Positions 21,794 to 42,600 of a stretch of DNA of 46,866 nucleotides are shown here, piece by piece. Where the stretch lies: NCBI GenBank assembly GCA_964616615.1, contig CAZTRJ010000003.1:1-46866 (forward strand), read 5' to 3'. Source of the DNA: an uncultured Dehalococcoidales bacterium (GTDB lineage: Bacteria > Chloroflexota > Dehalococcoidia > Dehalococcoidales > DAOVUZ01). Numbering within the stretch: position 1 is the first letter of the stretch; the number at the start of each line of letters is the position of its first letter. The notes beneath the pieces were generated by a model that saw only the letters and a program-made list of their open reading frames with translations, was not told the origin of the DNA and did not search any database. The translations under genes were made by a program, and so were the position numbers.

Positions 21794-21815
21794 CCATATT
21801 CCTCTATTCTAACCC

Positions 21816-23207: not shown

Positions 23208-24233
23208 TCACTCCTTAAGTTTAAAGTTTCTAGCCTCTTCGACAAGGACTTTTATGTTATTGAGCGGCATTAATGCTTCAAGACCACAGCTAGGCTCGAG
23301 CATAGTAACACCAGCCTCAAGCGCTTTCCTAGCTACGGCTCTCACCTCTTCAGCGGTACCATGGGTTAGCACCACTTTGGATTCAACATTACCCAAGATT
23401 TTAACGTCACCTACGATTGGCTTTATCCGGGCGATGTCAACACTTTGCTTAACGCTTATAACGTCAAAACCAATGTCAGCGATGTCTGGTATAAATGGTT
23501 CGACATCCCCACACAGATGTAGGATTCTTATTCCACCCAGATTGTCGGCGATTTTTTTCAGGGCGGGCTTAATATATTCTCTAAAAGTCTTGAGACCCAT
23601 TATGTCAGGCGTTCCCAGAGGCTCGCCAAGTGAGATTACATCAGAGCCAGCACGATATTGTGCCTTGCCATACTCTATGATGGCTTCCACGGCAAAATCA
23701 ATGAACTTTTTGGCACTTTCCGGATTCTTTACTGCCCACATCAAGAATCTCGTTGGCTCGGCTAACTCACCAGCTAGTGAATAAGGACCAAAGACAAAAC
23801 TTGTTACCGGGAGAAAATCTCCCACCTTTCTCCTCGCCAAACGAATGGCTTCCATTACGGCTGGAATTCTACCTCTTTTCAGAAAATCATCTGGCATCTT
23901 CAGGTCCTCGGCTTTATCAAAGGCATGATGTAGCATTGCTGGTTTAAGTTCATGACGGTCATAGAACTGAATTTCACAGCCCAAAACCTCAGGCAATATA
24001 CTGAATTCGTACCCAATGTTCACATTTCCCAGTCCAGTTATCTCCTGGCTAGCAATAGCCAGATTTGCCATCTTTTCCGGGTCTTGAAAGGCTTCAGGCC
24101 AGTATATTCCAGCCGCTTTTTGAATCTCTACGGTAACACTTCCTCCACAAGCCCCGATGCAGGTTGCCGGTACCTCATCAACTTTCCCTCCCAATAAAGC
24201 AGTCAACACCCTTCGTTTTGGAGTGAATTTCAA
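23208..24233 (-). CDS. URO-D/MtaA-CmuA family corrinoid methyltransferase
   Basis: RRVLTALLGGKVDEVP, ILHLCGD, MLEPSCGLEALMPLNNIKVLV. Confidence 0.8.
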   Translation of the reverse strand: MKFTPKRRVLTALLGGKVDEVPATCIGACGGSVTVEIQKAAGIYWPEAFQDPEKMANLAIASQEITGLGNVNIGYEFSILPEVLGCEIQFYDRHELKPAMLHHAFDKAEDLKMPDDFLKRGRIPAVMEAIRLARRKVGDFLPVTSFVFGPYSLAGELAEPTRFLMWAVKNPESAKKFIDFAVEAIIEYGKAQYRAGSDVISLGEPLGTPDIMGLKTFREYIKPALKKIADNLGGIRILHLCGDVEPFIPDIADIGFDVISVKQSVDIARIKPIVGDVKILGNVESKVVLTHGTAEEVRAVARKALEAGVTMLEPSCGLEALMPLNNIKVLVEEARNFKLKE

Positions 24234-25417: not shown

Positions 25418-26008
25418 CTACAATTTAACCCCAATGAGAATAGTCCCCTGACCCCGCACATCAACCCCGTTAAAATAGCCATTTTTCAAGAATAAATCAC
25501 AAGGTGTGGTGGGACTAGCATAAATAATGGAACGACATGAAAAATCGCTCCCCTCCAGGATACACCATTCGGCGAGGAGGCTCGGGGTCTCAAAACAGCA
25601 GACATCCTTGGCGATATCCTGAGGAAAAGATATCCTGTCCTTATAAATAACAAAATTATCCAGCATAAACCAGACATTTTCCTTTTTTTTCATCCTGGCA
25701 ATGGCTTCCTCATCCTCAATTTCTTCACCCACCACCTCCTCTCCTTTCTTTAAAATCAGGGAAGGAGAGCCCCACTCAAACTCTCTGTCAGTCAGGCCAA
25801 CATAGACCAAATCACAAGTTAGCACCTCCCTTATCCCGGTGTTGGCGACCCTACCCAGACCCATCAGGGAGTGCTTTTCGGCCTCATCCTCGATGCTCAA
25901 CACCTGCTGACTATCTTTTTCAGAAAAAGGGCAGATGTCTACGAGCCCCTTCACCTTTTTCAAGGCCGCTATCATCACCGCATCTGCCTTCGTCCGGTCT
26001 ATGGTCAT
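25418..26008 (-). CDS. hypothetical Cys-rich protein
   Basis: 196-aa ORF whose ATG overlaps the stop of the RamA-like gene (ATGA). Acidic linker and several Cys (DICPF, DVCCF, EWC, FSC, TPC). No family recognised. Confidence 0.4.
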   Translation of the reverse strand: MTIDRTKADAVMIAALKKVKGLVDICPFSEKDSQQVLSIEDEAEKHSLMGLGRVANTGIREVLTCDLVYVGLTDREFEWGSPSLILKKGEEVVGEEIEDEEAIARMKKKENVWFMLDNFVIYKDRISFPQDIAKDVCCFETPSLLAEWCILEGSDFSCRSIIYASPTTPCDLFLKNGYFNGVDVRGQGTILIGVKL

Positions 26009-27678
26009 TTCTCCTCTCCCGCTGAAGAGCTACTTTGCCGACCTTTAACTCCTGAAGTAATTAGTTTATTCAGGTTGAACACCTTTTCGCTACATATCCT
26101 TTCACATCTCATACAGGCTACCCCATTACACAGGGCTAGGTTAATAACGATGGCAGGCTTCTCCCCCTGTTCATCCAGGGAAAGAGCTCCCTCGGGGCAT
26201 TCCTCGACGCACTTCTGGCAGCTGATGCACCCCTCAAAAGCCATCTCTTTTAGTTCCCCGATGTCGGGAATAATCTTTAGCCCCATAACCCCCAAATCTG
26301 GTATGTCCCTCTCCACCGTCTTAATAACCTCTGGAAGCTCACCGACCTCGTGGAGGGGAGGGTAGCCATATCTTTCCAGAAATTGTTGATACATCTTCAA
26401 GGGCATACCCTGAGTCCATAAGGAAAGTTCAAGGACATAGACCTTCTCAAAAACCTCGGACTCGGCAAACATGCAGTGGTGTTGCCGCATCTCATTGGCT
26501 ATTTTTTGCATGTTCCACAGTTCATCCTCGCTTTTGACCATATCCCGGGACATAGCCAGGGAGGTGTTCCCTACCTGGAAGACCCTCTTTACAGTTGACG
26601 GTACCATGCCTATTTGCTGGGCCTTGAGGGCATCGACATAGGTTCCAGAGGCGCCGGACATATAAGCCGTTCCTATTTGGGTCATATCTATACCCGCCGC
26701 CTGACAAAGGGTGACATGCCCCGCCCTGACCGCGCCAATAGCCTTACCCGCCTCCTCGACATCGTGTTCGGTAAACTTGATACCGCTGGCAAGTTTGATT
26801 TTACTATCGGATGTTTTGATTTTGGGAAGTTTAATCAGACCGGTGTTTATTCCCTGGCTGAGTAAGGCAATCACTCCGGTACCAGTAATGCCTACCGCCT
26901 TTAAACTCCCTTTATCCAGGACTTTGCCCGAATCAGGGTCCACTAGGTCTCCTTTTTGGGCATACATATCCTGGTCAAGGACAAAACACTGAAGTCCGCC
27001 ATCCTGGGAATTGACATCAGAGATGGCTCCGGGGAGGGCTAATAGGCCATCCTCAATCTGTTGCCCTTCCAGGGCAGGCCCAGCAGCCGTAGAGCCAGTG
27101 TAAACGACTCCCCCTACTATGAGGGCCATTTCATTGTTAGTGCCGTAATCGGTGACAATGGCGATTTCTTCCCTTTCCAGCACACCTGCCTGAATCATCA
27201 TAGCCAGGGCGTCGGCTCCAATCTCGTGGCGAACCGCCGGTGGCACCAACACATCTGCTTCAGTCGGCAGGTCAAGACCTCTGACATCCCGTGCCTTAAC
27301 TATTTGGGCATCTCTTTTCGGGGGGACTACCCCCAGACTTTCCAGCTTGCTTTTCCCAGCATAGGCCAGGTCTCTTATCTCCATTTCCCTGAAAATAGAG
27401 AGCTGAATAGGATTGCCGCAGACAGCCAATCGCACCACATCATCTTTTTCGATTCTAAGATTGTCAATAACCCGATTGACAGCATTAACAGCCACATCAT
27501 GGGCGTTTGCTACCCCAACCTCCAGGGCAAAATGCAGGTGGTCCATTACATTAGCCCCTGGCATGGGGTGGCGGGTAGTAATAGCGGTAGAGATTATTTT
27601 GTTCCCATTGTCCAGGTCAATGGCTTGCCCCCTGAAGCCACTGGTTCCCAAATCAAAGGCAATACCTAGTTTCCCCAT
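26005..27678 (-). CDS. ramA: RamA-type reductive activase (ASKHA ATPase + C-terminal 2x[4Fe-4S] ferredoxin domain)
   Basis: N-terminal ASKHA motifs (GIAFDLGTSG, TDYGTNNE). C-terminal CISCQKCVEECP and CNGVACMRCERIC clusters. This is the domain order described for Methanosarcina RamA. Confidence 0.7.
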   Translation of the reverse strand: MGKLGIAFDLGTSGFRGQAIDLDNGNKIISTAITTRHPMPGANVMDHLHFALEVGVANAHDVAVNAVNRVIDNLRIEKDDVVRLAVCGNPIQLSIFREMEIRDLAYAGKSKLESLGVVPPKRDAQIVKARDVRGLDLPTEADVLVPPAVRHEIGADALAMMIQAGVLEREEIAIVTDYGTNNEMALIVGGVVYTGSTAAGPALEGQQIEDGLLALPGAISDVNSQDGGLQCFVLDQDMYAQKGDLVDPDSGKVLDKGSLKAVGITGTGVIALLSQGINTGLIKLPKIKTSDSKIKLASGIKFTEHDVEEAGKAIGAVRAGHVTLCQAAGIDMTQIGTAYMSGASGTYVDALKAQQIGMVPSTVKRVFQVGNTSLAMSRDMVKSEDELWNMQKIANEMRQHHCMFAESEVFEKVYVLELSLWTQGMPLKMYQQFLERYGYPPLHEVGELPEVIKTVERDIPDLGVMGLKIIPDIGELKEMAFEGCISCQKCVEECPEGALSLDEQGEKPAIVINLALCNGVACMRCERICSEKVFNLNKLITSGVKGRQSSSSAGEEK

Positions 27679-27752: not shown

Positions 27753-28565
27753 TCAGGCTAATGCCTGAACTGCCATGGCAGCGACACCCAGTTGCAGGGG
27801 GTCATGGATAAGTTGAACCATATCTGACTCAGGTTCGTCAATGCCCAGAGGTACGCCCGGCGCTGCCAGGAACAGCCGACATTTCAGCTCCCCGACCCTG
27901 ATAATGTTAGAAGAGGTGGTGGCATCCAGCACCAGGTTGGTCTCACTTAAAATCTCACCCACACTACCCGCCCCTCTTATGCCTGCCCTCCCCGCCAGAA
28001 AATCAGACTGCCGCCTCTGGTCCTTATCATAAACGATGAGCCGGGCCCCGTGCGAGTGAAGCCAGCCCACTGCCGCCTGCCCTACCGGCCCTAATCCCAG
28101 GACAGCCACCGGGCGTCCAGCGACACCTCCGGCAGCAGCAGCCAGGGCGGCAGCATAAACCTCACCCGTAGCCAGTGTATTATCTACCAGTCGGCGGGAA
28201 CGCAAGTTCAATGCCAGAAAGGCGGCATCGTCGGCAAGTAGTATAATTTCTGAACCACCGACCACAGCCTCGCCCAATCCAGCCACATCCTGCCCTCTGG
28301 TAACTTTACAAGGCAGCCCCAGAAAACAGCCTATGTCAGCTACCTGTTCCGAAAAACCAGGAATGATGCCCTGACCGGTAGTGATAGGAATAACCGCCAC
28401 CCAGGACAGAGCTGCCACCCCGGTTCTGTATTGTTCCAGTGTCATATCTGTTGTCTCAAGAGCCAGTTCCAGCAGTCCCATACCAGTTGCAGCCTGCAGC
28501 CTCTGCTCGTATGCTTTCAAATCGATAGGTCCCTGCTTCAGGTCATCTGTGGTCAACCGCGTCAT
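27753..28565 (-). CDS. pylD: pyrrolysine biosynthesis dehydrogenase PylD
   Basis: By-eye alignment with Methanosarcina PylD: LTTDDL, IPITTGQGIIPGFSEQV, GSEIILLADDAAFLALNL, VLGLGPVG Rossmann loop. Overlaps the pylC end by 23 nt. Confidence 0.85.
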   Translation of the reverse strand: MTRLTTDDLKQGPIDLKAYEQRLQAATGMGLLELALETTDMTLEQYRTGVAALSWVAVIPITTGQGIIPGFSEQVADIGCFLGLPCKVTRGQDVAGLGEAVVGGSEIILLADDAAFLALNLRSRRLVDNTLATGEVYAAALAAAAGGVAGRPVAVLGLGPVGQAAVGWLHSHGARLIVYDKDQRRQSDFLAGRAGIRGAGSVGEILSETNLVLDATTSSNIIRVGELKCRLFLAAPGVPLGIDEPESDMVQLIHDPLQLGVAAMAVQALA

Positions 28566-29781
28566 GATTCCCTCCGAGTTGCGGCACTTGGTAAGTAGGG
28601 TCGATAAAATCTTTCAGGTTCAATGCCGAGGCTATGCGCTCCAGGCACCTTTGCCGCTTTTCAGCAACTGATGCCCAGTCAACTCCAGTAAAAATGAGGG
28701 TGCTCTTGAAAGCCGACTTCCCTTCCTGATAGTTAGTCAGGGCTACGGTGGCTCCGAAAAATTCACCATTGGGCCACACCCGGAGTCCGCTCCAGGGTAG
28801 CAAACGCGTCTCGCCAATAGCCTCCAGACAGGAGTTACCTACTGACCAGTGTTCCAGCCAGGCACACCCGGGCCCAGCTACCGCCGGGCGGAGGGGCTGA
28901 CCACATCCATGAGCCTTTACCCATTCCTCCAGCAGGTTGATACCGGAGGCATGATAAACAGCCATGGGCGTCTGACTGGGAAAGCGAGCATCAATCTCCA
29001 GAACAACAACCTCCCCCCTTCGGGGGTCAGCCATGACCTCAACATCCATAAGCCCATTAAGCTTCAGGTGGCGGGCAATGTCAAGGCAGATGGTTTCAAA
29101 CCTCTGATTGAGACTGTGGGGCAATCTCGACGGAGCATAAACCCGCTTGCAATCCAGTTTAGCATCAAATTCCAATTCGGTGACCAGATAGCCGACGCCT
29201 GCCCCTTGCCGGGCAATTACCTCCAAAGAAAGGGAAGGACCGCTATGATAGGCTTCCACCACCATCTCTCCATAACGGGTAGTGAGTTCCGGCAAAACAG
29301 CGTCCAAGGCGGTCCGACTCAACACTACCTGAAGACCATGACTCCCACTGGACGTGGACGGTTTGACTATAACCGGGAAGCGGCAATGAGGCCACTTTTC
29401 CGGGACAGGGATTCCGTGGTCGGCAAAAAAGCGGTTACTGCGTATTTTGGATGATGATACGGCATAGGCTGCAGTATCATGCAAAAATGTCACCCCGGCT
29501 TCCTCACAGGTCTCCGCCAAAAAATCCAGGGTTCCCTTCTCTTCAGTTGCCGGTAGAATCGCATCCATATCCGGCAGCAGACGGCGAAACCGGTGGGGCT
29601 CTTCCTGGATGTCAAAAACGCAGGCTTGATGAGCCAGTGCCAGAGCTGGCGCCTCCGGGTCACGGTCGATAACCGTAACCTGATATCCAGCTTCCCGTGC
29701 CAGGTAGGCGGCTTCAATCCCCTGTAGACGCCCCCCGACAAGTCCAAGGCGAAAGGAATAAGCATGTGGTTTAGGGTTCAT
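28543..29781 (-). CDS. pylC: 3-methylornithine--L-lysine ligase PylC (ATP-grasp)
   Basis: Pre-ATP-grasp N-terminus LGLVGGRLQGIEAAYLAREAGYQVTVID. ATP-grasp body (VIVKPSTSSGSHG, LEIDARFPSQTP). The start is set at ATG 29781 (MNPKPH) rather than the upstream alternative start at 29796. Confidence 0.8.
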   Translation of the reverse strand: MNPKPHAYSFRLGLVGGRLQGIEAAYLAREAGYQVTVIDRDPEAPALALAHQACVFDIQEEPHRFRRLLPDMDAILPATEEKGTLDFLAETCEEAGVTFLHDTAAYAVSSSKIRSNRFFADHGIPVPEKWPHCRFPVIVKPSTSSGSHGLQVVLSRTALDAVLPELTTRYGEMVVEAYHSGPSLSLEVIARQGAGVGYLVTELEFDAKLDCKRVYAPSRLPHSLNQRFETICLDIARHLKLNGLMDVEVMADPRRGEVVVLEIDARFPSQTPMAVYHASGINLLEEWVKAHGCGQPLRPAVAGPGCAWLEHWSVGNSCLEAIGETRLLPWSGLRVWPNGEFFGATVALTNYQEGKSAFKSTLIFTGVDWASVAEKRQRCLERIASALNLKDFIDPTYQVPQLGGNHDAVDHR

Positions 29782-29801
29782 AGCCACCAGTCTCACATAA
29801 T

Positions 29802-29838
29802 GGGGTGAGCTTCGCTAAGGAGTCACTAAGCTCACCCC
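29802..29838 (-). promoter_or_regulatory. leader hairpin upstream of pylC
   Basis: Perfect 11-bp stem GGGGTGAGCTT / AAGCTCACCCC with a 15-nt loop. It lies between the promoter and the pylC start, with no trailing U-run. Confidence 0.5.
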
Positions 29839-29849
29839 AAGCAGTGAAA

Positions 29850-29878
29850 ATTATAAGCCCAGCCTAAATTCTTGTCAA
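29850..29878 (-). promoter_or_regulatory. consensus sigma70 promoter for pylC-pylD
   Basis: On the - strand: TTGACA (29878-29873), a 17-nt spacer, then TATAAT (29855-29850). Both hexamers are perfect. Confidence 0.65.
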
Positions 29879-30003
29879 CAGCTTGTACTCTTCTTGTTCC
29901 AGAAACTTGAGTGGTGTCAGGTAGTTAAGGGCTTGGTGAGAACAGGAGGACAGCAGTAACTAGCTTTAATAAGGCAAGAGGTCATGGTTTTGGCACAGCC
30001 TGT

Positions 30004-30834
30004 TTAGATGTTGAGCCGTGCCCCATCCAGATAGATTAGGCTTCTACCGACACGGTGTATATTCCCATTGCCGGTAACTAACATAGCCACCCGCTCCAGC
30101 CCTACACCCAGTCCGGCCCAGGATTCGCTGATGTTCCAGTTGCCATCCAGAGGATGGGGGCCGGTAGCGCCCGAAGCCACCTCCACCCCATCACAGACCA
30201 CATCCAGGGTAAAGCCATAAACCTGAGAGGACTCTTTCACCAAATCATAGGAAAGACCAAATGTGCCCATGACCAGGTCTGCTATCTCAACCAACCGTTC
30301 TTGTGGCTCACCTTGACAACCCAATTCCACCAGGTTCAGCATAGTGAACTCTTCCATGTGGTGGGAGCCTTTGGACTCCTTGCGCCAGCAGGAGCCTATC
30401 TCAAAAAGGCAGATTGGGCGCGGCCACAGACGCTGCAAGTGTCCCAACAGAAAATAGAGGTTGGGCGCCAACATAGGGCGAAGGCAACGCTCTTCATCAA
30501 TCCAGAAAATCTGCTTCCACAGGGGGTCATCCTCAAAAATGTTCATTTTTTTGAGTAATCCCCGGGCTAAAAAGGCGGGGGTAGTCACCTCCACGAACCC
30601 GGCCTGCACCAAGGTTTCGGCTATCTGCGCCGCTATTCTAACCGGGGCAGGACGACGCAGAGTAGTGCGGAGTCTGGTCAAGATTTCCAGGTTTCTTTCC
30701 GACAACTCTTTGGCCAGATGATTGAAGCAGGCGTTACGCTCCGATTCGGAGGCAAAGCTCAGTGCCAGTGCCTCAGGTTCCGCATCCAGTTCAACGAGCC
30801 GCTGTTTTTGAGTACTTGAAAAGGTAACCTTCAT
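30004..30834 (-). CDS. pylS: pyrrolysyl-tRNA synthetase, catalytic subunit (PylSc)
   Basis: By-eye alignment with Desulfitobacterium PylSc and the Methanosarcina PylRS C-domain: CLRPMLAPNLY, ICLFEIGSCWRKES, EEFTMLN, VYGFTLDV, ASGATGPHPLD, GLGVGLERV, SLIYLDGARLNI. The start is set at ATG 30834 behind AAGGAAGG. Confidence 0.9.
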   Translation of the reverse strand: MKVTFSSTQKQRLVELDAEPEALALSFASESERNACFNHLAKELSERNLEILTRLRTTLRRPAPVRIAAQIAETLVQAGFVEVTTPAFLARGLLKKMNIFEDDPLWKQIFWIDEERCLRPMLAPNLYFLLGHLQRLWPRPICLFEIGSCWRKESKGSHHMEEFTMLNLVELGCQGEPQERLVEIADLVMGTFGLSYDLVKESSQVYGFTLDVVCDGVEVASGATGPHPLDGNWNISESWAGLGVGLERVAMLVTGNGNIHRVGRSLIYLDGARLNI

Positions 30835-31174
30835 GTCCGCCTTCCTTGACAAAGGAGGTCCGAGAGTATTTTTCCAGCTTCCACGCCGGCACCCGACAAC
30901 TCTGACAGGGCTTTTCGTACCATTTATTCCTGAGCCACCGTGCCAGGCGACTATTACTGGAACACTTGACACAGACCCTCTGGTTGCAGTGGGTGATTAT
31001 GGTCATCACATTACCCCGGCACTTTACGGAACGAACACCATGGAGGATTCCCTTATGTGACGGCAAAAGCTTAATCCGATTTATGAGGTAATATAAGTCT
31101 TCGCCCTTCCTGAAGACCTTCTTCTTTTTCCGCTTTCCGCCAACCTCAGCGGTAACGGGACTTTGTGGTTCCAT
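30791..31174 (-). CDS. pylSn: pyrrolysyl-tRNA synthetase N-terminal tRNA-binding subunit (PylSn)
   Basis: Matches the PylRS N-domain by eye: LINRIKLLPSHKGILHGV...THCNQRVCVKCSSNSRLARWLRNKWYEKPCQSCRV against M. mazei LISATGLWMSRTGTIHKI...[34 protein letters not shown]. The H/C/C/C Zn ligands are conserved. Its 3' end overlaps pylSc by 44 nt in another frame. Confidence 0.8.
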   Translation of the reverse strand: MEPQSPVTAEVGGKRKKKKVFRKGEDLYYLINRIKLLPSHKGILHGVRSVKCRGNVMTIITHCNQRVCVKCSSNSRLARWLRNKWYEKPCQSCRVPAWKLEKYSRTSFVKEGGHEGYLFKYSKTAAR

Positions 31175-31206
31175 AACACTTCCCCCGGGCTATAGACGGC
31201 AAACAC

Positions 31207-31278
31207 TGGCGGAGAGTTCGGGAGTTTAACCCGACTACATGGATTTAGAGTCCACGCGGTCCTGCCGACCAACCCTCC
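31207..31278 (-). tRNA. pylT: tRNA-Pyl (anticodon CUA), CCA encoded
   Basis: The - strand reads GGAGGGT-T-GGTC-GGCAG-GACC-G-CGTGGA-CTCTAAA-TCCATG-TAG-TCGGG-TTAAACT-CCCGA-ACTCTCC-G-CCA. Features: 7-bp acceptor stem, one linker nt, 5-nt D loop, 6-bp anticodon stem, CUA anticodon, 3-nt variable loop, T loop lacking the TPsiC consensus, and G discriminator. Close to the M. barkeri tRNA-Pyl core GGACTCTAAATCC. Confidence 0.92.
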
Positions 31279-31400
31279 ATAAAGGCTGAGAACACTTGCT
31301 TTCTGGGACACTTAGCCCATCGTGTCCCCCATCTCTAATATCCAACCGAAGAGCTATTACATTGGCTCCAGTAGTATGCAAGTCACCAGCCAGCTTGTTG

Positions 31401-32090
31401 TTATTTCGGCTTTTGAATGGCTCTCAGCGCTCGGCGCAACATATCCAGCCAGGGTTCTACCGTTTCGGCTCTAAACCGTTCGTAGTCCCTTGCCAACGAT
31501 GCATCTGCCACCGTCAGATAGACCCTAGCCACTTCCGGGCTCTCAAATTCCCCGCTGAGCTTATCCCCTAAAACTTTTTTTAAAGAAGGGTAAAGCTCCT
31601 GGTACGGTTCTAAAAATCCCATAATTTCGAAAACACTGCCTTCCATTTCCTCCAGACACGGAAATTCCTCCAGACACGGAAAGGGTTTACTCAAAATCCT
31701 CTCTAAACAGCGACAACGCTCAGACAATGAATCCAGCCCACCCTGCAAGTAAGCACTGACTGCCTCCGAATCAACACTGATATAATCCATAACAGCCAGT
31801 TGGCAGTCGTCAATGGCATAAATGCTGCAACCTTCGTCGCTAACTTTTAATTCCAGCTCATTTTTCACGAAACTGTAGAGAGCCTCTCCCGTGAGCCTGG
31901 AAGACATCTTCCCAATTATCCGTACCACCTCCCCCATGGATTCCAGTGGAAGTTCAGCAGGAGCCTTCAAGCAGTATAGTTCGCCGAAAAAATGGCACCG
32001 CACGCTTAAAGGCCGGGCTAAGCTCCCAAACGTACCAGGGTCCCAAACCTTTAACAGCAGCATGTCACCCGGCGAGCTTTCGCTGGTCAT
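31401..32090 (-). CDS. hypothetical protein, third gene of the AAA+/VWA module
   Basis: 229-aa ORF whose start overlaps the VWA gene stop by 4 nt. No recognisable motif. Contains the internal PCLEEF/PCLEEM duplication. Confidence 0.45.
   Translation of the reverse strand: MTSESSPGDMLLLKVWDPGTFGSLARPLSVRCHFFGELYCLKAPAELPLESMGEVVRIIGKMSSRLTGEALYSFVKNELELKVSDEGCSIYAIDDCQLAVMDYISVDSEAVSAYLQGGLDSLSERCRCLERILSKPFPCLEEFPCLEEMEGSVFEIMGFLEPYQELYPSLKKVLGDKLSGEFESPEVARVYLTVADASLARDYERFRAETVEPWLDMLRRALRAIQKPK
31647..31682. repeat. 18-nt perfect tandem duplication inside the hypothetical CDS
   Basis: TTCCTCCAGACACGGAAA x2 (31647-31664 and 31665-31682), encoding FPCLEE twice. Confidence 0.9.
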
Positions 32091-33325
32091 TGTTCATACC
32101 CCTGTAACCGGATGACCCTTCCAAATGGCGGCTCACGGTAAGAATTCATAACCCAGATGACATCAAAGGGTTGATTCGAGTCCGGATATTTCCCATCTCC
32201 GTCCGTCAGGTAAACCAGCACTTCAGGCGGGTCATCATCTATCTTGCTAAAAACAGGACGGAAGTCGGTACCACCACTACCACTGAGACACTTCAGGAAA
32301 GACTCAAAATCTGAATCATGCACCGCCATCATATCAGCATGAACGGCGGCATCGCAAGCCAAAAGCCTGGCCCGGAACGAACTGAAGGACTGGAGGATGT
32401 TTCTGATTTCCGCCAAAAACTCGTCAAGCTGCTCATCACTCACGCTTCCCGAGGTGTCCACCGCCACCGCTATTTTTAACAGCTCAGACTTAGAAGATGG
32501 ATAGTATATCCCATATTGAAGCAATCGCCTATCGGGTTTCATCCAATCATAATCATCACTAGAGCGCTGCTTAATATACTGATGCAAAAGCTGACGCCAA
32601 TTCAAACGAGGGTAAGCAAGTTCCCCAACTACCCGGGCAATGCCCAAGGGGAACATACCTTGATGCTTCGCCACCGCCGCCGCTTCAATCGCCCTCTGTT
32701 TCCACAACTCCTCATCTTTACTAGCTTCAGCAGACTTATCCAATGCCTCTTTACTAGCTTCAGCAGACTTATCCAATGCCTCTTTACTAGCTTCAGTGGG
32801 CTTATCCAATGTCTCCCTTGGCCCACTATCCTGTCGGTTGATGTCATGCCCGCCTTCTTCAGTGTTGTCCCACACACCGTGGTCATCAATAGTATCTCCT
32901 TCACCACCAGGCAGGCCTTCTTCATTCAATAGCTCATTGTAAATTTGCTCCGCGCTTTTGTTTTCAAACTCTTTTTCATACAATATCCCTTCAGGCAAAC
33001 GGAAGTGGTCTTTCAAAATAGCGTTAATCACATAGTCCGCCGCCATGTTCCAGAGCCTTTTTTCTCGAGAACCACGCCTCCAGATGTGCCCCAGCGCCAG
33101 ATGCATCACCTCGTGGGCAAAGACCCCCTCAATCTCCTCATCTTCCAGTCTATCTATCTTTTCCGGGAAATAGTACAGACAAATACCGTCGGTCCCGGTT
33201 GGATATTTGCTCTCATGCTCCCTCAGCTCGAGATAGTTGGCGAGATAGCCAAAAAAGGGGTTCTTCAGCAGTAGCTGAACCCTGGCTCTAATTACCCTCT
33301 TCCTGACGCTCGTAGAATCACTCAT
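32087..33325 (-). CDS. HExxH metallopeptidase-like + VWA-like domain protein (DUF2201-type partner of MoxR ATPases)
   Basis: N-terminal FAHEVMHLALGH (HExxH). Central low-complexity repeat linker. C-terminal VWA/MIDAS-like AVDTSGSVS. Overlaps the AAA+ gene stop by 4 nt. Confidence 0.65.
   Translation of the reverse strand: MSDSTSVRKRVIRARVQLLLKNPFFGYLANYLELREHESKYPTGTDGICLYYFPEKIDRLEDEEIEGVFAHEVMHLALGHIWRRGSREKRLWNMAADYVINAILKDHFRLPEGILYEKEFENKSAEQIYNELLNEEGLPGGEGDTIDDHGVWDNTEEGGHDINRQDSGPRETLDKPTEASKEALDKSAEASKEALDKSAEASKDEELWKQRAIEAAAVAKHQGMFPLGIARVVGELAYPRLNWRQLLHQYIKQRSSDDYDWMKPDRRLLQYGIYYPSSKSELLKIAVAVDTSGSVSDEQLDEFLAEIRNILQSFSSFRARLLACDAAVHADMMAVHDSDFESFLKCLSGSGGTDFRPVFSKIDDDPPEVLVYLTDGDGKYPDSNQPFDVIWVMNSYREPPFGRVIRLQGYEQ
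32715..32813. repeat. 33-nt tandem repeat x3 within the VWA protein linker
   Basis: Units at 32715-32747, 32748-32780 and 32781-32813 (TCTTTACTAGCTTCAGCAGACTTATCCAATGCC). The first two are identical and the third has a few changes. Encodes (EASKEALDKSA)n. Confidence 0.9.
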
Positions 33326-34326
33326 AGAATCAAATCTCGGTGCTTTTCGGCAAAATAAACAAATTCCTGCGTTTCTCTAACCGGTAACTCCGCTCTAATA
33401 GCATCCCTTACCAGCAACACGGAGAATTCCTCAGGTAAAAGGCAGGCGTATTCTATAACTCTGGCAGTTTTCCCCATGTCCTCGCGGGCATAACAAACCA
33501 GGGCCGACACCAGAGAGTAGAGCAGGTCCGGACTCTGTGGAACCAGGTCCTCTCCGTTGAGAATCATCTTTGCATCCGGAAGCCGCTCTGTTGCCCGCAG
33601 GTAAGCCAGGAATTCAGTCGCCGCACCCACGCCGATAGCACCGGCTACATCCGTTTTGCTCTCAAGCCCTATAGCCAAAATCTCGGAGACCCTCTCCCAA
33701 CTTCGAGGTGTGGGAAAAGCGTGTTCCATCTTCGCCGGGTCGAAGCGAAACAGCAGGTCAGGTTTGAAGCTTAAAAAACCTATTACCCTGGAGTCAATCT
33801 GATTGGCATACGCCCATTTTTTCCAGTCATCAAGATTGGTTTCAACTTCCCAATGGATGAACCGATTGGCTAACGGGGCTGGCATGGGCACGGTATAGGC
33901 TCTGTCGGTGGACTTATTTCCCGCCGCCACCACCATCCACCCATCCGGCAACACATACTCCCCGACTCTGCGGTCCAAAATAAGCTGATACGCAGCCGCC
34001 TGTACTGAATGAGGCGCCAGGTTCAGCTCGTCCAGGAACAAAATGCCCTTTCCGCTTTGCGGCAGGAAACAGGGTGGCGACCAACTGACCGTTCCCCCAT
34101 CAAACCTGGGCAGCCCCCTAAGGTCAACGGGGTCAAGCAAGGTCAACCGCAAATCCTCAAAATCTATTCCCTCTTCCTCACAGATTTGCTTGACAATGTC
34201 AGACTTCCCTATCCCAGTGGAGCCCCATAAAAAGACGGGCGGTGAGTTTATTCTTGCCCCCAGGCAAAAACTCACCATATGCCTGAGCACCTCCTTAACC
34301 TCGTTAATGCTTTTGGTAGCGAGCAT
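33322..34326 (-). CDS. MoxR/AAA_5-type AAA+ ATPase
   Basis: Walker A GSTGIGKS, Walker B ILFLDELN, sensor region VVAAGN, LANRF motif. The start lies 2 nt after the pylB stop. Confidence 0.8.
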   Translation of the reverse strand: MLATKSINEVKEVLRHMVSFCLGARINSPPVFLWGSTGIGKSDIVKQICEEEGIDFEDLRLTLLDPVDLRGLPRFDGGTVSWSPPCFLPQSGKGILFLDELNLAPHSVQAAAYQLILDRRVGEYVLPDGWMVVAAGNKSTDRAYTVPMPAPLANRFIHWEVETNLDDWKKWAYANQIDSRVIGFLSFKPDLLFRFDPAKMEHAFPTPRSWERVSEILAIGLESKTDVAGAIGVGAATEFLAYLRATERLPDAKMILNGEDLVPQSPDLLYSLVSALVCYAREDMGKTARVIEYACLLPEEFSVLLVRDAIRAELPVRETQEFVYFAEKHRDLIL

Positions 34327-34328
34327 CT

Positions 34329-35399
34329 TTATGAACTCTCCTTTTTATTCCGCCGCTTTTCCTTCTTAAGCCACTTTTGGTACCCTGATACCGGGGCTAC
34401 CCTCAAACCCGCCTGCTCAATCACCGGGGTCACCACCGACACCGTCCGCAGCCCGTCTTCAATACCTAGCTGAGACCTGGATACCCCCGCCAGTCCATAC
34501 CGCGGTGGTATCATCGAGGTCACCACATTGGCTCCGGCATCTAATCGAGCCTTAAGCCCCTCAACCCCATCCACATCCAGCGAGGCTGGTATCAGTCGGT
34601 CGGGAAAGCAAATACGAAATGTGGCAATAGTTCGTAATTCATTCAGTGAATCCGGCGCTTGCCAATCAGCCATCGGGGTGCCACGCTGAGGTCTGAAGGT
34701 CATCGCCCTCACCTGGCTGGCACAAAGGCTTTCTATGGCTTTTACCGCCAATGCCCCGTCAGCGGGGCTGTCTCCTACCCCCAGCAGCAGCCCCTCTTCA
34801 ATAAGCAATCCAGCCCGGCGGGCGTGCACCTTAGCTACCAGACGCCTATTAAAATCCTGCTGTATACGCAAGCGGGCAAAAAGACTTTCATTGAAAGTTT
34901 CCTGATAACAGGCATACCAATCCACCCCCAGGCGGGCAATTTCAACCAAAATCCCCGGTGTTAAAACGCCAGGGGAAACCATAACTGATAGCGGGACAGC
35001 CTCGCGCACCTCATCCACCAATTCCAGAAGCCTCCCCCCACCCCCCTCCAGGTAGTAAGGGTCCTCCCCCATAGTCAAATCCAGCAGGTGAACCCCATCG
35101 GCGGCTAATGCCCGGGCGACATCAAGTATGACCTTTATGCTTTTGCGATAGCGAGGCGAGGCGCTGTTGCCACACCGATAAAGACAAAAATTGCAGTGGT
35201 TTCGGCAGTAGGTGGATAAATAGACAAAACCGTAAAGAAAAACCTCCTCGCCGAAGACACGCTCCCTCAGTGTCCGGGCAGTGGCAAAGAGGCTATCCAG
35301 GGGTTTGCCCGGCGGTGTGGCTAAAAGCGAAGCCACCTCTACTTCATCCAGGGGCTGCCCGCACAAGGCCTTTTCCAAAATGGGTTCAATAGTCCTCAT
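34329..35399 (-). CDS. pylB: methylornithine synthase PylB (radical SAM)
   Basis: By-eye alignment with Methanosarcina PylB: VFLYGFVYLSTYCRNHCNFCLY (CxxxCxxC), DLTMGEDPYY, YQETFNESLF, RLIPASLDVDG, AGANVVTS. Confidence 0.88.
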   Translation of the reverse strand: MRTIEPILEKALCGQPLDEVEVASLLATPPGKPLDSLFATARTLRERVFGEEVFLYGFVYLSTYCRNHCNFCLYRCGNSASPRYRKSIKVILDVARALAADGVHLLDLTMGEDPYYLEGGGGRLLELVDEVREAVPLSVMVSPGVLTPGILVEIARLGVDWYACYQETFNESLFARLRIQQDFNRRLVAKVHARRAGLLIEEGLLLGVGDSPADGALAVKAIESLCASQVRAMTFRPQRGTPMADWQAPDSLNELRTIATFRICFPDRLIPASLDVDGVEGLKARLDAGANVVTSMIPPRYGLAGVSRSQLGIEDGLRTVSVVTPVIEQAGLRVAPVSGYQKWLKKEKRRNKKESS

Positions 35400-35663: not shown

Positions 35664-37046
35664 TTATAGCTTAAGCTTGAACCCGCACCCCTCAAAGGTC
35701 TTTAAGGCTTTATCCATTACCTTGATATACTCATCCGTAGGCGACAGAGAAGCTACATCGTAGCACTCCTGGAAGGTCTTGCCCTTTGGTGCCGTCTTGA
35801 AGTTCTTCTCATAGAGAGACACCAGCTTGTCTAGAGCGACATTGACCTTTTCCAGAGGCTCCCCGGCGACGGCTCGGCTGGCATAAGCCATAAAGCGTGA
35901 TTCCATGGCAGTGGTGTAGTCCCGAGCAACACCTTTTGCCGAGGCATTACCACTAATAATCTCACGCCCGGCGGCAGTATCCGTAACCGCCTGAGCCGCT
36001 GCCTCCAGCAAGCACATCTCAGTGCATGGACCAGCTGAAGTATAGTACTGGTTACCCAAAAGCAGATGGGTATTGCGATCCAGAGCCCGACCACAGTAGC
36101 CGGCAACCATCAACACCTCCCTGGCTGTTGTGTTGCCCCAGCGCACATGAATCGGTCCGTCCAGATGCCAGTCAGCTCCCACTAATAGGAAAGCTCCCAA
36201 ACTGGTGGCTACGTCAATGATGGTGGTCTCCTCGACCCCTCCTGCCCAGCCACCGAAGATGGGCATCTGCTCACTCATAACTATGCAACCGCCTAACTTG
36301 TAGTGGGCGGTGAAGGTAAGGGCATTAATGTCAATCTTGAGCTCATTAAGCTGACTTACCTCGTGGCTATCACTTGGCCGCATGCCGCCCTCAAAATCAG
36401 CAGCTAAAACGCCAGCCGCCGTCAGCGAAGTTTCATTCCCCTACATCGCCATCCCGGGACGACCAGCCCGCTGCTGTGCCATACGGATTCCGTATGCTTC
36501 CTGTTTGACAGCAGCTATCTCATACGGGGAGCCAGGCTTGGGTTCGTGCCCGTTCCAGGTAGCCACAACACCGTCAACGATGGAATCTACCAAGGGCTCC
36601 CGGGCATACGCCTCCATCATCGGGATAAAGATGTTCTCCGATACCGGAGCCCCGGTCGGACCACCCTGATTAATGGGTGGGCGGGGGTCATCAAATGTCC
36701 GTGACTTCATCTGCTCCGAATCCTTACCCTCACCTAGCGTGAGGCAGTCAGGAGCCGCCGCTGCCCCCATCATAACCTCGTCCTCGGTGTACTTGCAGAC
36801 ACGACAGGTATCCATGTTGAAATAGCCCTGTGTTACGAGCATTTCAACACCGGCACGGAACAAACGGTCACAGAGGTCATTGTCAGTCGGGACTATCTTG
36901 CTCCTGTCAAATTGAAGCTTATACTTCTCCTTCAATGCATGTGCCGTTTTGAAGGTGAGTACTTCATCCCACTCTTTCTCTGTCACCCTGGGGCCGGTGC
37001 GCATTCGGTCGTAGGTCTCAAACACGCCGACCTTTTCCCTAAACAT
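35664..37046 (-). CDS. mtmB: monomethylamine:corrinoid methyltransferase MtmB with in-frame UAG (pyrrolysine) at codon 202
   Basis: ORFs 36441..37046 and 35664..36383 are in the same frame. They are joined through TAG (36443-36441) plus 19 codons. The read-through gives GRPGMAM-O-GNETSLTAAGVLAADFEGGMRPSDSHEVSQLNELKIDINAL, which matches M. barkeri MtmB GRPGMGV-O-GPETSLSAQGNISADCTGGMTCTDSHEVSQLNELKIDLDAI. 460 aa in total. AGGAGG RBS. Confidence 0.92.
36441..36443 (-). other. recoded amber codon (Pyl) inside mtmB
   Basis: + strand CTA equals TAG on the - strand, at the position homologous to the pyrrolysine codon of archaeal mtmB. Confidence 0.9.
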
Positions 37047-37934: not shown

Positions 37935-39116
37935 TTAATACGGTTCCTGCCTGCCGGGCTCCAAATCGAAGATCTCGGAATCGTCCACATCCAGCGCTGG
38001 TCTCGGACTGCGGCACAGAACTCCAGTGATAACACCGACTACTATCATAATCACTATAGCGCCGAGCAAAGCCCAGACCTGCACCACACCAGCAAACAAG
38101 ACGGCACATATCAGAGCACCAAAAATACCACCGACCCCGTGCAGGTTCTGCACCCCCATCATATCTTTCACACCAAAGATTCTTTCGCTAGCGGGCTGCC
38201 AGTACTTAAAGCATAAGACTGATATGGCACCTGCTGCCACACCAATGATAAGCCCTGCCCATGGTCCGACCAGGTCACATGTTGAACCAATAGCAACCAT
38301 GCCGCACAGCATAGCATAGGTGTAAATCAGGGGGTCAACCTTTTTATCTATCATCCAATTCACTACATAGGCAGCAACTGCCGCACCAAAACCAGACATG
38401 TAGGTGACTATGGCTACGTCAACCACTTGACCCGGTGCCAGCAGGACTGTCACGAAGGATGGCCACAGTATAAACAGCAACATCGACGCCAGCCAGACGA
38501 AGCTCACACTGTGGGTAGTAATATCCATCGGCGCCGTTAGAGCTGACTTACTCCGAATCCCATGAATCATCCCAAAGCCAAAGGCCCATGCCGCCGCATG
38601 AACCACAATGGACCCGCCAGCGTCAAGAACGCCTACCAGGAACTCAAACATAAACCACTCCATGAGTAGAAAAGCGAAGGGGAAGGTTATCCCCATGATA
38701 ACATAGTGACCATGTTTTACCTGCCCCAAACACACCCCGATGGCTATCACCAGCGTTATCGACATAACGATGCCCATTGCCAGGAAGTCAACAGTCCACC
38801 CTGTTGGCATTACCGAAAACTGGTTGGCAAAGACAACAGTCTTGAGAAAAGCATACACCGGTAAACTAATACACAGCGTCAGCATAGTTGCGAGGCAGAC
38901 TATCCACTCCATCCTCTTAACAAACAACATCAAAAAGGCAACTAGCATGTACATAAAGAAGATATTCTGCGTCCTTTGCCACATTAAGTTGTCTATTATC
39001 TCTACATCTAGAATTTCCTGAGCAAAAACAGTAACTGGCTGGACTATCAGCGCTACCACTGTTGCCGCTACTAACAATCCAAGCCATATCACCTTCCGTG
39101 ATTTCAACACTTTCAT
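37935..39116 (-). CDS. Amt/MEP-family ammonium (methylammonium) channel
   Basis: Signal-like N-terminus and about 11 hydrophobic segments. LDAGGSIVVH corresponds to the DFAGGTVVH signature, and the second His context is NLHGVGGIFGAL. Confidence 0.7.
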   Translation of the reverse strand: MKVLKSRKVIWLGLLVAATVVALIVQPVTVFAQEILDVEIIDNLMWQRTQNIFFMYMLVAFLMLFVKRMEWIVCLATMLTLCISLPVYAFLKTVVFANQFSVMPTGWTVDFLAMGIVMSITLVIAIGVCLGQVKHGHYVIMGITFPFAFLLMEWFMFEFLVGVLDAGGSIVVHAAAWAFGFGMIHGIRSKSALTAPMDITTHSVSFVWLASMLLFILWPSFVTVLLAPGQVVDVAIVTYMSGFGAAVAAYVVNWMIDKKVDPLIYTYAMLCGMVAIGSTCDLVGPWAGLIIGVAAGAISVLCFKYWQPASERIFGVKDMMGVQNLHGVGGIFGALICAVLFAGVVQVWALLGAIVIMIVVGVITGVLCRSPRPALDVDDSEIFDLEPGRQEPY

Positions 39117-39553: not shown

Positions 39554-39629
39554 GGGGCTGTAGCTTAGCTGGGAGAGCGCCTCCCTTGCACGGAGGAGGT
39601 CGGGGGTTCGAGTCCCCCCAGCTCCACCA
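39554..39629 (+). tRNA. tRNA-Ala (anticodon UGC), CCA encoded
   Basis: GGGGCTGTAGCTTAGCTGGGAGAGCGCCTCCCTTGCACGGAGGAGGTCGGGGGTTCGAGTCCCCCCAGCTCCACCA. It has the G3:U70 alanine identity pair, anticodon loop CTTGCAC and T loop TTCGAGT. Confidence 0.95.
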
Positions 39630-39646: not shown

Positions 39647-42600
39647 TCAGGTTTGAGAGGCAGAAGCCCCTTTGTCAAGCCGGTTCCTGTGTTCGCAGCA
39701 CTGATGGTAAAATGCCTCAAGCCTTATCTCCTGCCCCGGGTCCCTATTACCATCAACGATAAGGTTGAACACGGGGAGTCCATGTTTGCTGCGAAATTGG
39801 TGTAAGAGAACGCTGGCAACAGTGCCGGGCATACAGCCGAAGGGTATAACATTGACCACACCGTTAAAACCATGTTCAGCATATTCCACAGCGCGTCCCA
39901 AACTTAGAATCGCCTCACCCCCCGTTCCGTCGATTAGATAGGTGTTGCCCCGAGCCACAATCTCTGATGCCGGTAGTTCACGGCCAAAATGCTCCAGAGC
40001 CCCATCAAACTGCCGCCTCAATTGCTCAACCGCCCTTTCCTGGACCAACTCGGCTAACTTCTGCTTGGCATATCTCTTCCACTGCCAATTAAAGCGATAC
40101 TCAAGTCTTCGTTCATAATCAATGTAATCTAGCCACTCCTCAAACGGCGGCAGTGAACATTCGGCACCAAGGGCTTCCAGCTTGCGAACAATAAAATCAT
40201 TGGCGAATTCATTATCACGAGTGAAGATTTCTCCAACCAGACCGATGCGCGGCTTACGAACACTTTTATCAACTTCTATCGCGTCAAAGGCATTCCTGAT
40301 GCGTCTAGCCAAGAGCTCCAAACCACCACCGCCCTCCTCAACAATTCCCACCAGCGACTGCATCCCCTCCTGGTAAACGGCATCGGCTTCCCCTTGGTTA
40401 ACTTCATAGGGACGCCTTTCAAGAAGCATCTTCTGCATTAAGTCCATAATGATAAGCCCTCGCCAGGCAAGCAGTTTGAAGCCCGAACCTACACGGGTAA
40501 CATGCTGCTGATAATTCCTGCTCTGGTCAAGGACAAGGATTGGAACTTCCTCCAAGCCAAGCTCATCAAGGACAATTCTATGGAGTCGGTTATATTGCCC
40601 GAAGCGGCATGGTCCGCGGGCGTCAGCCATAAAGAAGGCAGCCCGGTGGGGGTCAAAATCAGAGGAAAGGGCTTTTTTAACCATATCACCAGTGGTGATG
40701 ATGGCAGGGTAGCACTCTTTGCCACTGGTATATTTCCTGCCGAGTTCCAGGGTGAGTGTGTCTGCCATAGGTAGTGGTTCAGCAACAACCCGGTAGTATC
40801 GCATCGCCGCCGCTACAACGTATCCATGGTCTAACATATACGGGACGTATACTGTTCTACCATTGGCATAGCTGGGAACAAAGCTAGGTACTATGATAGG
40901 CTTCCTTATACCTCGAGTTCTAGCATTGCGTATAGTATCAAGGAATGCCTCACAGCGGGTAATAATACCAACATCAGCCGAGTGCTCGTCAATTTCTATG
41001 GTAAGAAAAGGCTTGCCCTCAGTCTCCTTGGTGAAAAACTTCAGTAGATAAGAATCAGGACCACAGCTAAAGTTAGTCACGTAGAGTCCAAACAGCCGCC
41101 GGTCGGCGGCAATCATTCTGGCAGCAGCCAGAATTTTCTGCCCTGACTTCCAATACATATTGGGATGGACTGAAGTAACCTCCCTGGCATAGGCCTTCAG
41201 GGGTAGAAAATCCAGGGGAATCGCCAGCACGCCAAGTTCACGAAGCTTTTCCGGCAAATTCAGCATCACTCCCGGGTCACAGGTATTATAAGGTCGCCCA
41301 ATGATAACGATAGCCTTTTCGTCAGGCTTTAACTGCGCCAGCACCTCCTGACCACGCCTTTGCTGCCATTGGTTAAATGAATCAAGGGCGGCAAAGCCAG
41401 CATCAACAGCTTCCCCCAGCAACCTTCGGTTGGTAATGCCCATCTCACGCCCCAATCGGAACAATGCCTTACGCATCCACCGGTGACCCCGGTCAAGATA
41501 AAACACAGGACTGAGCACCCTTGGTCCGCCATCACGGGATGCCCCTCCAATCTGGATAGAACTGCGAATGGTAAACGGAAGACCCTGGGTCAGCGGACAG
41601 TTCCATGACCTATCAAAATCTTCACTCAGTTTCTCCATGGAGCATTGAGCGGGCAAGAAAAGGAAATCAGCGCCTTTTTCCAGCAGGTTTAGCACATGTC
41701 CGTGGGCAACTTTTATCGGGAAGCACGGCTCCTCGACAACATTCTCCACACCCTGACGGATAATGTTGCGATTGGTCGCGTCAGATACGACCACCTGAAA
41801 GCCAAGTTCGGTGAAAAATGCCTTCCACAGCGGGAACAGCTCGTGGAAGAATAAGGCTCTAACGATTCCAACTGTCTTACCATTAGGAGAATCCGGGCTA
41901 TCCTTGGGATAGGCGCCCATCAAGGCTTGGTGCCGCTCATCAAAAAGCCGCGGGATTGTTGATGACTGGCACTGTTGCTTCTTTTTCGGGCTATCATATT
42001 TACCGCAGCGCGAACCATAAAAGAGCGGCGCCTCATCGCCAAAAATAACCTGGTGAATCTCGCACCGATTGGGACAGCCCTGGCACTCAAACGATGAAAG
42101 CTCGTATTTTCTATCCCTGAGGTCGAAGCCCCGGAAGCCTGTCCTGCCCCCGCTCCTGTCCATTTCCTCCATCGCCAGCATCGCCACCCCGATAGCCCCG
42201 AGGATGTCATGATGGGGGGGAACCAAAACCTTCTCGCCGAGCACGCTTTCAAAGGCTGCCTTGACTGCCCGGTTGAACGCCACCCCCCCCTGAAAAAGTA
42301 TGTGATTGCCGATGCGATGGTCTTCTACCACCTTACTGAGGTAGTTCTTGACAATAGAATAAGAAAGACCACCGAGCAAGTCTTCCTTTGCCGCCCCTTT
42401 CTGTTTGTAGAAATTAAGCTGGGACTCCATAAAGACGGTGCAGCGCTGACCTAAGTCCAGAGGTCGTTTTGAAGCCAGCGCCCTGGCGCCAAATTCCTCA
42501 TCGATATTGATGGCTAATTTTTCCGCCTGCTCCTCAAGGAAGGAGCCAGTCCCGGCAGCACATACCTTGTTCATAGTAAAATCAACAATGGTACCATTCT

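Follow-up and report, generated by a model that had tools for sequence, protein, structure and literature searches.

In Desulfitobacterium hafniense, the six genes of the system for pyrrolysine (Pyl), the 22nd amino acid, run in the order pylT-pylSc-pylB-pylC-pylD-pylSn, with a split pyrrolysyl-tRNA synthetase (PylRS) and linkage to a methylamine methyltransferase gene that contains UAG. In Acetohalobium arabaticum, the pyl genes stand beside methylamine methyltransferase genes and TAG stays a normal stop codon (PMC11467909). The enzymology of PylB, PylC, PylD, PylS, MtmB, MtmC, and RamA is established for these families, and bacterial pyl clusters have been described as “more variable, but compact” (PMC11467909). 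For the Chloroflexi, passages of Mukai et al. 2017 (mBio, PMC5424206) present Chloroflexi-type pylSn/pylSc genes, a supplementary “Chloroflexi PylRS clade,” and a Dehalococcoid lineage with both SepRS and PylRS, the co-occurrence with SepRS being the focus of that paper. Here, we analyzed 46,866 nucleotides of contig CAZTRJ010000003.1 (assembly GCA_964616615.1; this whole stretch is referred to as “the window”), labeled as an uncultured Dehalococcoidales bacterium. We consider it highly likely that the window encodes a complete, very probably functional pyrrolysine cassette within a predicted monomethylamine-utilization locus of a Dehalococcoidales (Chloroflexota) bacterium.

The minus-strand order of the block is amt - mtmC - mtmB (with UAG at codon 202) - pylB - [AAA ATPase - DUF2201 - orphan] - pylT - pylSn - pylSc - (promoter-like site) - pylC - pylD - ramA. 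The genes that carry the conclusion are as follows, in window coordinates.

35664-37046, minus strand: mtmB, monomethylamine methyltransferase, with an in-frame UAG (codon 202, 36443-36441); read-through open reading frame (ORF) scan and Pfam MtmB
34329-35399, minus strand: pylB, methylornithine synthase (radical SAM); TIGR03910
31207-31278, minus strand: pylT, tRNA-Pyl (CUA) with CCA encoded; ARAGORN, 72 nt
30791-31174, minus strand: pylSn, small (tRNA-binding) subunit of PylRS; TIGR03912
30004-30834, minus strand: pylSc, catalytic subunit of PylRS; TIGR02367
28543-29796, minus strand: pylC, 3-methylornithine--L-lysine ligase (ATP-grasp); TIGR03909
27753-28565, minus strand: pylD, 3-methylornithyl-N6-L-lysine dehydrogenase; TIGR03911

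Within the sequence, the UAG-containing mtmB is the strongest sign that the cassette is in use. The gene looks like two ORFs (201 and 239 amino acids [aa]) separated by a single in-frame TAG, and the read-through product matches Pfam MtmB (PF05369) at 670.8 bits over profile positions 2 to 449 of 450. Its UAG codon 202 aligns with residue 202 of Methanosarcina barkeri MtmB1 (1L2Q/1NTH; 527 bits), the catalytic pyrrolysine position. The same two-ORF split recurs in four related loci (L001, L006, L011, and L012; L numbers denote loci from public data throughout). The read-through ORF scan of the window gave no other credible UAG read-through gene.

Identities of the Pyl proteins were assessed with NCBIfam equivalog models and their curated cut-offs, which all five proteins exceed. 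PylB scores 421.4 bits against TIGR03910 (cut-off, 348.2), compared with 87 for HydE and 73 for BioB; its top match in the Protein Data Bank (PDB) is PylB 3T7V (263 bits, HydE following at 76), and the translation shows the CxxxCxxC motif as CRNHCNFC. PylC reaches 323.7 bits against TIGR03909 (cut-off, 248.3), Ddl/PurK and generic ATP-grasp models lying at 44 to 47, and PylC 4FFL (158 bits) is its sole PDB match under 1e-10. For PylD, 197 bits against TIGR03911 (cut-off, 150.05) are accompanied by 95.5 bits for Pfam PylD_N, 95 bits for PylD 4J43/4Q39 in the PDB, and a Rossmann GxGxxG motif in the form GLGPVG; an exact-sequence look-up of this protein returned no record. PylSn scores 99.3 bits against TIGR03912 (cut-off, 51.15) and keeps the zinc-ligand His, Cys, and CxxC positions when aligned to its top structural match, Methanosarcina mazei PylSn 5UD5. 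PylSc scores 278.4 bits against TIGR02367 (cut-off, 178.15), the next non-Pyl model being EpmA at 29.8. Its top PDB match is D. hafniense PylSc 3DSQ/2ZNI (264 bits), relative to which the Pyl-pocket and class II motifs MLAPNLY, RKES, EFTMLN, VYG, and W-x-G-x-G-x-GLER are conserved; these presumably correspond to M. mazei residues N346, Y384, W417, and R330. The most likely start of pylSc is the ATG at 30834, because it is preceded by an AGGAAGG Shine-Dalgarno sequence and gives a 44-nt overlap with pylSn, an overlap likewise called in L003, L004, and L006. The GTG at 30972, which opens the mechanically called pylSc ORF, is an unlikely start, and the ATG is favored over it.

ARAGORN finds two tRNAs in the window, one of which is tRNA-Pyl with the anticodon cta at position 31. 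Its sequence, GGAGGGU-U-GGUC-GGCAG-GACC-G-CGUGGA-CUCUAAA-UCCAUG-UAG-UCGGG-UUAAACU-CCCGA-ACUCUCC-G-CCA, reads as a single nucleotide separating the acceptor and D stems, a D loop of 5 nt, an anticodon stem of 6 bp, a variable loop of 3 nt, and a T loop (UUAAACU) without the T-psi-C consensus. It has a G discriminator (G73) and a G1:C72 pair, which are known as PylRS identity elements from work on D. hafniense and Methanosarcina; the discriminator of the L012 pylT is U. The minimum free energy fold (-30.9 kcal/mol) is a cloverleaf with acceptor, D, anticodon, and T arms, differing from the Pyl model only in that 8-61 and 22-42, unpaired in the model, are closed and 45-61 is left open. In an alignment of seven sequences (the window copy and six homologues from related loci), the named structure pairs in 97.7% of cells, with compensatory double changes at five pairs, and pairing collapses when the register is slid.

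The first-pass annotation of this DNA had recognized at the same coordinates a 72-nt CUA tRNA with the oddities of tRNA-Pyl, which ARAGORN, the cloverleaf, and covariation all bear out, and had assigned the five ORFs to PylSn, PylSc, PylB, PylC, and PylD by eye. The profile check agrees with that assignment; no ORF scores better to BioB (73 bits), generic ATP-grasp (at most 47), or class II aminoacyl-tRNA synthetase models (at most 30). With ARAGORN, NCBIfam, and PDB matches in concurrence, the split bacterial cassette of pylT, pylSn, pylSc, pylB, pylC, and pylD is complete, as had been proposed. Within the interval given for it, the pyl genes are as claimed; what had been overlooked are three non-pyl genes inside this interval (31401-34326) and the UAG-containing mtmB immediately beyond it.

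PylSc relatives are numerous in public data, with 2632 at E < 1e-20. A PylSc search covering one genome per GTDB species returned L001, a contig from an “uncultured Dehalococcoidales bacterium” metagenome-assembled genome (MAG) whose PylSc is 94% identical to that of the window, and blastn aligns the two at ~90% nucleotide identity from a tRNA-Ala(UGC) gene through ramA. L001, L003, L004, and L006 share the order DUF2201 - orphan - pylT - pylSn - pylSc - pylC - pylD - ramA, with intact reading frames throughout this conserved block; L005, which is cut inside pylSc, has the same order up to pylSn, and L001 and L006 have the entire amt - mtmC - mtmB(UAG) - pylB - AAA block as well. More distant loci vary. 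L011 (PylSc 67% identical) reads mtmC - mtmB(UAG) - pylB - pylT - pylSn - pylSc - pylC - pylD and does not have the three inserted genes, and L012 (60% identical) has the order pylT - pylSn - pylSc - pylB - pylC - pylD. At L010 (72% identical; 6116-10837), only pylT and pylSc are seen beside a UAG-split mttB and corrinoid genes, and pylSn and pylBCD are not found within 10 kb, so the pyl genes of that genome are dispersed. The variability of L010, L011, and L012 agrees with the published description of bacterial pyl order (PMC11467909). L001 itself has an extra ~1.9 kb (10848-12793) between pylSc and pylC that is absent in the window and comprises a weak DUF2283-like ORF, with a small ORF upstream, and an NYN-domain protein encoded on the opposite strand; the segment looks like a toxin-antitoxin or mobile insertion, and it indicates that the pylSc-pylC spacer tolerates insertions.

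Ratios of nonsynonymous to synonymous substitution (dN/dS; Nei-Gojobori, window versus L001, L006, and L003) are 0.10 to 0.27 for the pyl genes and 0.25 to 0.56 for mtmB. These values bear on the possibility that the cassette, acquired by horizontal transfer, survives only as a non-functional relic, in which the UAG of mtmB merely truncates the protein. Such a relic would sit comfortably with the frequent use of TAG as a stop in the window and with the failure to find a regulator or a recoding element, but five independent loci keep all six pyl genes and the two halves of mtmB unbroken, dN/dS stays far under 1 even for the part of mtmB downstream of the UAG (0.25 to 0.31), catalytic motifs are retained, and the UAG falls exactly at the catalytic Pyl position. 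We regard a relic as extremely improbable.

The reading of a functional cassette in a Dehalococcoidales host nevertheless has to accommodate several observations that weigh against it. The general tRNA model of Rfam (RF00005) does not match pylT in a search of 31100-31400 at E <= 10; Rfam 15 is without a Pyl-specific tRNA family, and the identity of the tRNA therefore rests on ARAGORN, structure, and covariation. The silence of RF00005 is expected for so atypical a tRNA and is not positive evidence. No PYLIS-like structure was found after the mtmB UAG, where a z-score of +1.06 shows no advantage over shuffled sequence, and no regulator gene was found. A quarter (25%) of the genes end in TAG, such that read-through would have costs to be contained, and the window gives no hint of the means. 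Finally, the taxonomic label comes from a binned MAG.

Stop codons of 40 window genes are TAA in 16, TGA in 14, and TAG in 10, which argues that UAG is not reassigned genome-wide and that Pyl insertion is probably conditional. The remaining genes of the methylamine block and two promoter-like sites are as follows.

39429-39401, minus strand: promoter-like site upstream of amt; 11 of 12 consensus matches
37935-39116, minus strand: Amt-family transporter, putative methylammonium uptake, first gene of the block; Pfam Ammonium_transp, 93 bits
37130-37768, minus strand: mtmC-like corrinoid protein; Pfam B12-binding_2 and B12-binding
29850-29878, minus strand: perfect sigma-70 consensus (TTGACA-17-TATAAT) in the pylSc-pylC spacer; 12 of 12 matches, consensus only
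26005-27678, minus strand: ramA-like corrinoid reductive activase (RACo ASKHA and two [4Fe-4S]); Pfam RACo_C_ter 209.8 bits, Raco_middle, Fer4_7

The position of the Amt gene is kept in L001 and L006, and ramA is the next gene after pylD in L001, L003, L004, and L006. Taking enzymology at this locus from family membership, PylB would convert lysine to 3-methyl-D-ornithine, PylC would ligate a second lysine to it, and PylD would oxidize the PylC product, leading to cyclization to pyrrolysine. PylSc, helped by the tRNA-binding PylSn, would charge tRNA-Pyl(CUA), and the charged tRNA would read the UAG at mtmB codon 202. Pyl-containing MtmB would then methylate the corrinoid protein MtmC, held in the Co(I) state by RamA, and the methyl group may pass onward through neighboring URO-D-type and MtrH-type methyltransferases, presumably to folate. 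Co-expression of the pyl genes with mtmCB from a promoter upstream of amt would make read-through conditional on substrate; given that neither a regulator nor a PYLIS was found, such conditional expression is what we infer.

The host had been proposed in the first-pass annotation to be a Chloroflexota/Dehalococcoidia-like bacterium, from the cobamide-salvage gene order and from a 23S gene. The host inference is supported by L001, a Dehalococcoidales MAG that carries the same block at ~90% nucleotide identity (PylSc, 94%), and by the labels of homologues of the orphan gene, which are Dehalococcoidales and Anaerolineales. The cobamide-salvage order is essentially right. The 23S clue falls away: at Rfam gathering thresholds, no large-subunit rRNA is found in the window, and the region taken for it, 39647-43924 (minus strand), is an ORF of 1425 aa in which two BcrAD_BadFG ATPase domains are combined with DUF2229. 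This protein resembles a 2-hydroxyacyl-CoA dehydratase activase. Alternatively, the contig might not belong to a Dehalococcoidales genome, the related MAG contig being mis-binned or the locus being an island recently transferred from another phylum. Horizontal movement is known for Pyl clusters (PMC5424206, PMC11467909), and the label itself stems from one binned MAG and a few homologue source names, one of them “Anaerolineales.” However, synteny with L001 and L006 reaches past the pyl block to tRNA-Ala(UGC) and ramA, G+C is even over the window (0.46 to 0.54), the cobamide-salvage context suits corrinoid-auxotrophic Dehalococcoidia, and the passages of an independent paper that deal with Chloroflexi define a PylRS clade there (PMC5424206). 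A host outside the Dehalococcoidales thus seems very unlikely.

Three non-pyl genes separate pylB from pylT, and this embedded module is the only unexplained feature of the locus.

33322-34326, minus strand: AAA_5/MoxR-like ATPase; Pfam AAA_5, 24.3 bits (cut-off, 22)
32087-33325, minus strand: DUF2201 protein with HExxH metallopeptidase-like N-domain and VWA-like C-domain; Pfam DUF2201_N 140.8 bits, DUF2201 83.7 bits
31401-32090, minus strand: orphan 229-aa protein, clade-restricted, without known family

The AAA gene starts 2 nt past the pylB stop (dN/dS, 0.10 to 0.11); its product matches phrog_1297 over its full length (314 bits) and the Midasin AAA domain in the PDB, and the bpMoxR model stays below its cut-off. 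The DUF2201 gene follows with a 4-nt ATGA overlap (dN/dS, 0.13 to 0.20), and its product matches phrog_1314, again over the full length (303 bits). Within this gene, a tandem repeat of three 33-nt units (32715-32813) encodes EASKEALDKSA-type repeats in the interdomain linker, and the lengths of the homologues (391 to 414 aa) suggest that the copy number of the linker repeat probably varies. The orphan gene overlaps the DUF2201 gene by another ATGA (dN/dS, 0.38 to 0.56) and has no match in Pfam, NCBIfam, PHROG, PADLOC, or the PDB. Its 30 homologues share 57% identity or more, and each one whose context is known has this arrangement; a HMMER profile run against 1.84 billion representatives returned its own cluster and only two weak matches (E ~1e-4, from an uninformative 2-kb contig). 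The AlphaFold model of the orphan has a mean pLDDT (predicted local distance difference test) of 59, with the N-terminal half below 50, which is not good enough for a fold search. A tandem duplication of 18 nt within the orphan gene (31647-31682) adds a second FPCLEE that is lacking in most homologues.

The triad is present in every clade member examined, and the low dN/dS of its genes indicates that the module is maintained by selection. Because L011 is pylB-first and lacks the triad, the pylB-first order is older, with the triad inserted between pylB and pylT in a sub-clade; no flanking direct or inverted repeats that would mark a recent insertion were found, and the only repeats are the internal tandem ones. 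DUF2201 relatives are at least 81% identical inside the clade, and the next, outside it, drop to 45%. These 45%-identity relatives (L007, L008, and L009) lie on contigs that resemble archaeal viruses or plasmids, with PolB or PolD, AEP primase, NrdD, HEPN/NTase genes, and many small ORFs. Source names of DUF2201 homologues of this type include Hadarchaeum/Hadesarchaea MAGs. On the virus-like contigs, an AAA-sized gene stands directly upstream of DUF2201, and in L009 it matches AAA_5; the genes that follow DUF2201 there show no homology to the orphan. In our reading, the source of the AAA-DUF2201 pair was a virus or another mobile element, from which the pair was captured and then kept.

Two other ideas about these proteins were set aside. 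In Methanonatronarchaeum, a methylotrophic methanogen, a connection of DUF2201 with pyl was considered, and the homologue there has an unrelated chromosomal neighborhood, not near pyl or methyltransferase genes. A role in defense was considered for the three inserted proteins and for a 196-aa orphan ORF beyond ramA, and this reading lacks support, as PADLOC gives nothing meaningful.

Whether, in this clade, the triad is a passenger or an accessory dedicated to the Pyl/methylamine system can be weighed from the same observations. As an accessory, it could be, as one possibility, a MoxR-VWA chaperone that matures MtmB/MtmC or PylB, or a protease for quality control of UAG-read-through proteins. 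Its genes are set within the operon, beginning 2 nt past the pylB stop and linked by ATGA overlaps, they are conserved in all clade members examined, dN/dS within the block is lowest for the AAA and DUF2201 genes (0.10 to 0.20), and the orphan is known in this arrangement only. However, the triad is missing from L011, where pyl order and mtmCB are the same, such that Pyl use does not need it, and L012 and L010 are without it too. Furthermore, the AAA-DUF2201 pair belongs to large phage families, its nearest outside relatives are on virus-like contigs without pyl genes, the Methanonatronarchaeum homologue is far from pyl and methyltransferase genes, and in the only four papers that mention DUF2201, none of them on a related subject, no experiment ties any member to a function. 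On balance, we consider a dedicated accessory role unlikely. A fuller scenario, in which the pyl operon of this sub-clade recruited a phage-type AAA+/metallopeptidase-VWA pair and an orphan as a working accessory of code expansion, is more doubtful still. If true, the recruited module might mature the Pyl-dependent methyltransferase complex by remodeling or quality control or, alternatively, dispose of proteins aberrantly extended by UAG read-through.

Compared with described MoxR-type AAA+/VWA pairs (CbbQ-CbbO, NorQ-NorD, CobS-CobT) and with the phrog_1297/phrog_1314 pair, the module likewise has an AAA_5 gene followed by a gene for a VWA protein. Unlike those pairs, the VWA partner here bears an N-terminal HExxH metallopeptidase-like domain (DUF2201_N), and the module sits inside a pyl operon, a placement that appears restricted to this clade.

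Genes on both sides extend the corrinoid theme. A second methyl-transfer island (13697-24233, minus strand) holds four URO-D-family (MtaA/MtbA-like) genes, an MtrH-family gene, a 663-aa RACo with a 2Fe-2S domain, a corrinoid protein, DUF2284, and a CobA/BtuR corrinoid adenosyltransferase; no substrate-specific “B” methyltransferase was recognized in it, and ~800 bp of it (21426-22232) has weak coding potential and only a 106-aa ORF. A CobW GTPase is also among the corrinoid genes of the window. The opposite flank is a cobamide-salvage region under riboswitch control, with BtuFCD-like genes, CbiB, CobD, CobT, CobS, CobC, and CobU. Together, the mtm, corrinoid, and cobamide neighbors indicate that the pyl cassette belongs to a monomethylamine:corrinoid methyl-transfer locus.

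At gathering thresholds, Rfam finds only two cobalamin riboswitches and tRNA-Ala in the whole window. The stronger riboswitch (114 bits) heads an unusual operon (7245-13607, plus strand) that encodes a threonine-dehydrogenase-like Zn-dependent dehydrogenase, a TrpD-family phosphoribosyltransferase (above the trpD cut-off), CobT, CobS, a CobC-type phosphatase, a Diphthami_syn_2-family protein, and CobU. In lower-ligand or nucleotide-loop assembly, neither the TrpD-like nor the diphthamide-synthase-like gene would be expected. The weaker, shortened riboswitch (1146-1291; 48.9 bits) precedes the BtuF/BtuC/BtuD-like transporter genes, and a PD-(D/E)XK nuclease-family gene (77-1102, plus strand) is at the left edge of the window. 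The tRNA-Ala(UGC) gene (39554-39629) stands alone, and its position is kept in L001 and L006. Beyond ramA, the 196-aa ORF (25418-26008, minus strand) overlaps the ramA stop by 4 nt and has a dN/dS of ~0.4, with no Pfam, NCBIfam, PHROG, or PADLOC match; a gene of equal length follows ramA in L003 and L004, and a CdhD/FeS-domain gene is in that place in L006.

The locus provides a full-length, intact reference for the Chloroflexota-type pyrrolysine system, uniting on one contig six pyl genes, a UAG-containing mtmB, a corrinoid partner, an activase, and a transporter. To judge from its gene content, it would document monomethylamine use by the Dehalococcoidales, an abundant subsurface group, and for genetic-code-expansion engineering it supplies a split PylSn/PylSc-tRNA pair from a clade that has been little sampled. 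Conceptually, the gain is small, because Chloroflexi Pyl and variable pyl orders have been published and a near-identical locus is present in a public MAG. The novelty that the first-pass annotation had implied for the host lineage was thus overstated, Chloroflexi pylSn/pylSc genes and a PylRS clade appearing in passages of the 2017 paper (PMC5424206), as was that of the cassette order, since order in bacteria was already described as variable (PMC11467909).

Relative to the Chloroflexi PylRS clade as presented in those passages of Mukai et al. 2017, the locus is of the same phylum and has the same split pylSn/pylSc configuration; the interruption between pylB and pylT is not mentioned in the main text of that paper by term search or in its supplements, where “ATPase” is absent (PMC5424206). 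The interrupted operon is a minor, clade-specific variant. As in A. arabaticum, TAG stays a normal stop and the pyl genes are beside methylamine methyltransferase genes, which fits substrate-dependent expansion of the code (PMC11467909). In A. arabaticum, regulation has been demonstrated and the substrate is trimethylamine (mttB); here, we infer regulation, and mtmB is the linked gene. Like the D. hafniense cluster, the locus has a split PylRS, comprises the same six genes, and is linked to a methylamine methyltransferase gene that contains UAG. Its order differs from the Desulfitobacterium layout, as the first-pass annotation had also seen: pylB comes first, followed by pylT-pylSn-pylSc-pylC-pylD, with pylSn directly upstream of pylSc and overlapping it by 44 nt. 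Also unlike D. hafniense, three unrelated genes split pylB from pylT, and the host is of the Chloroflexota rather than the Bacillota. Set beside these systems, the locus is a well-preserved example and not a new kind of system.

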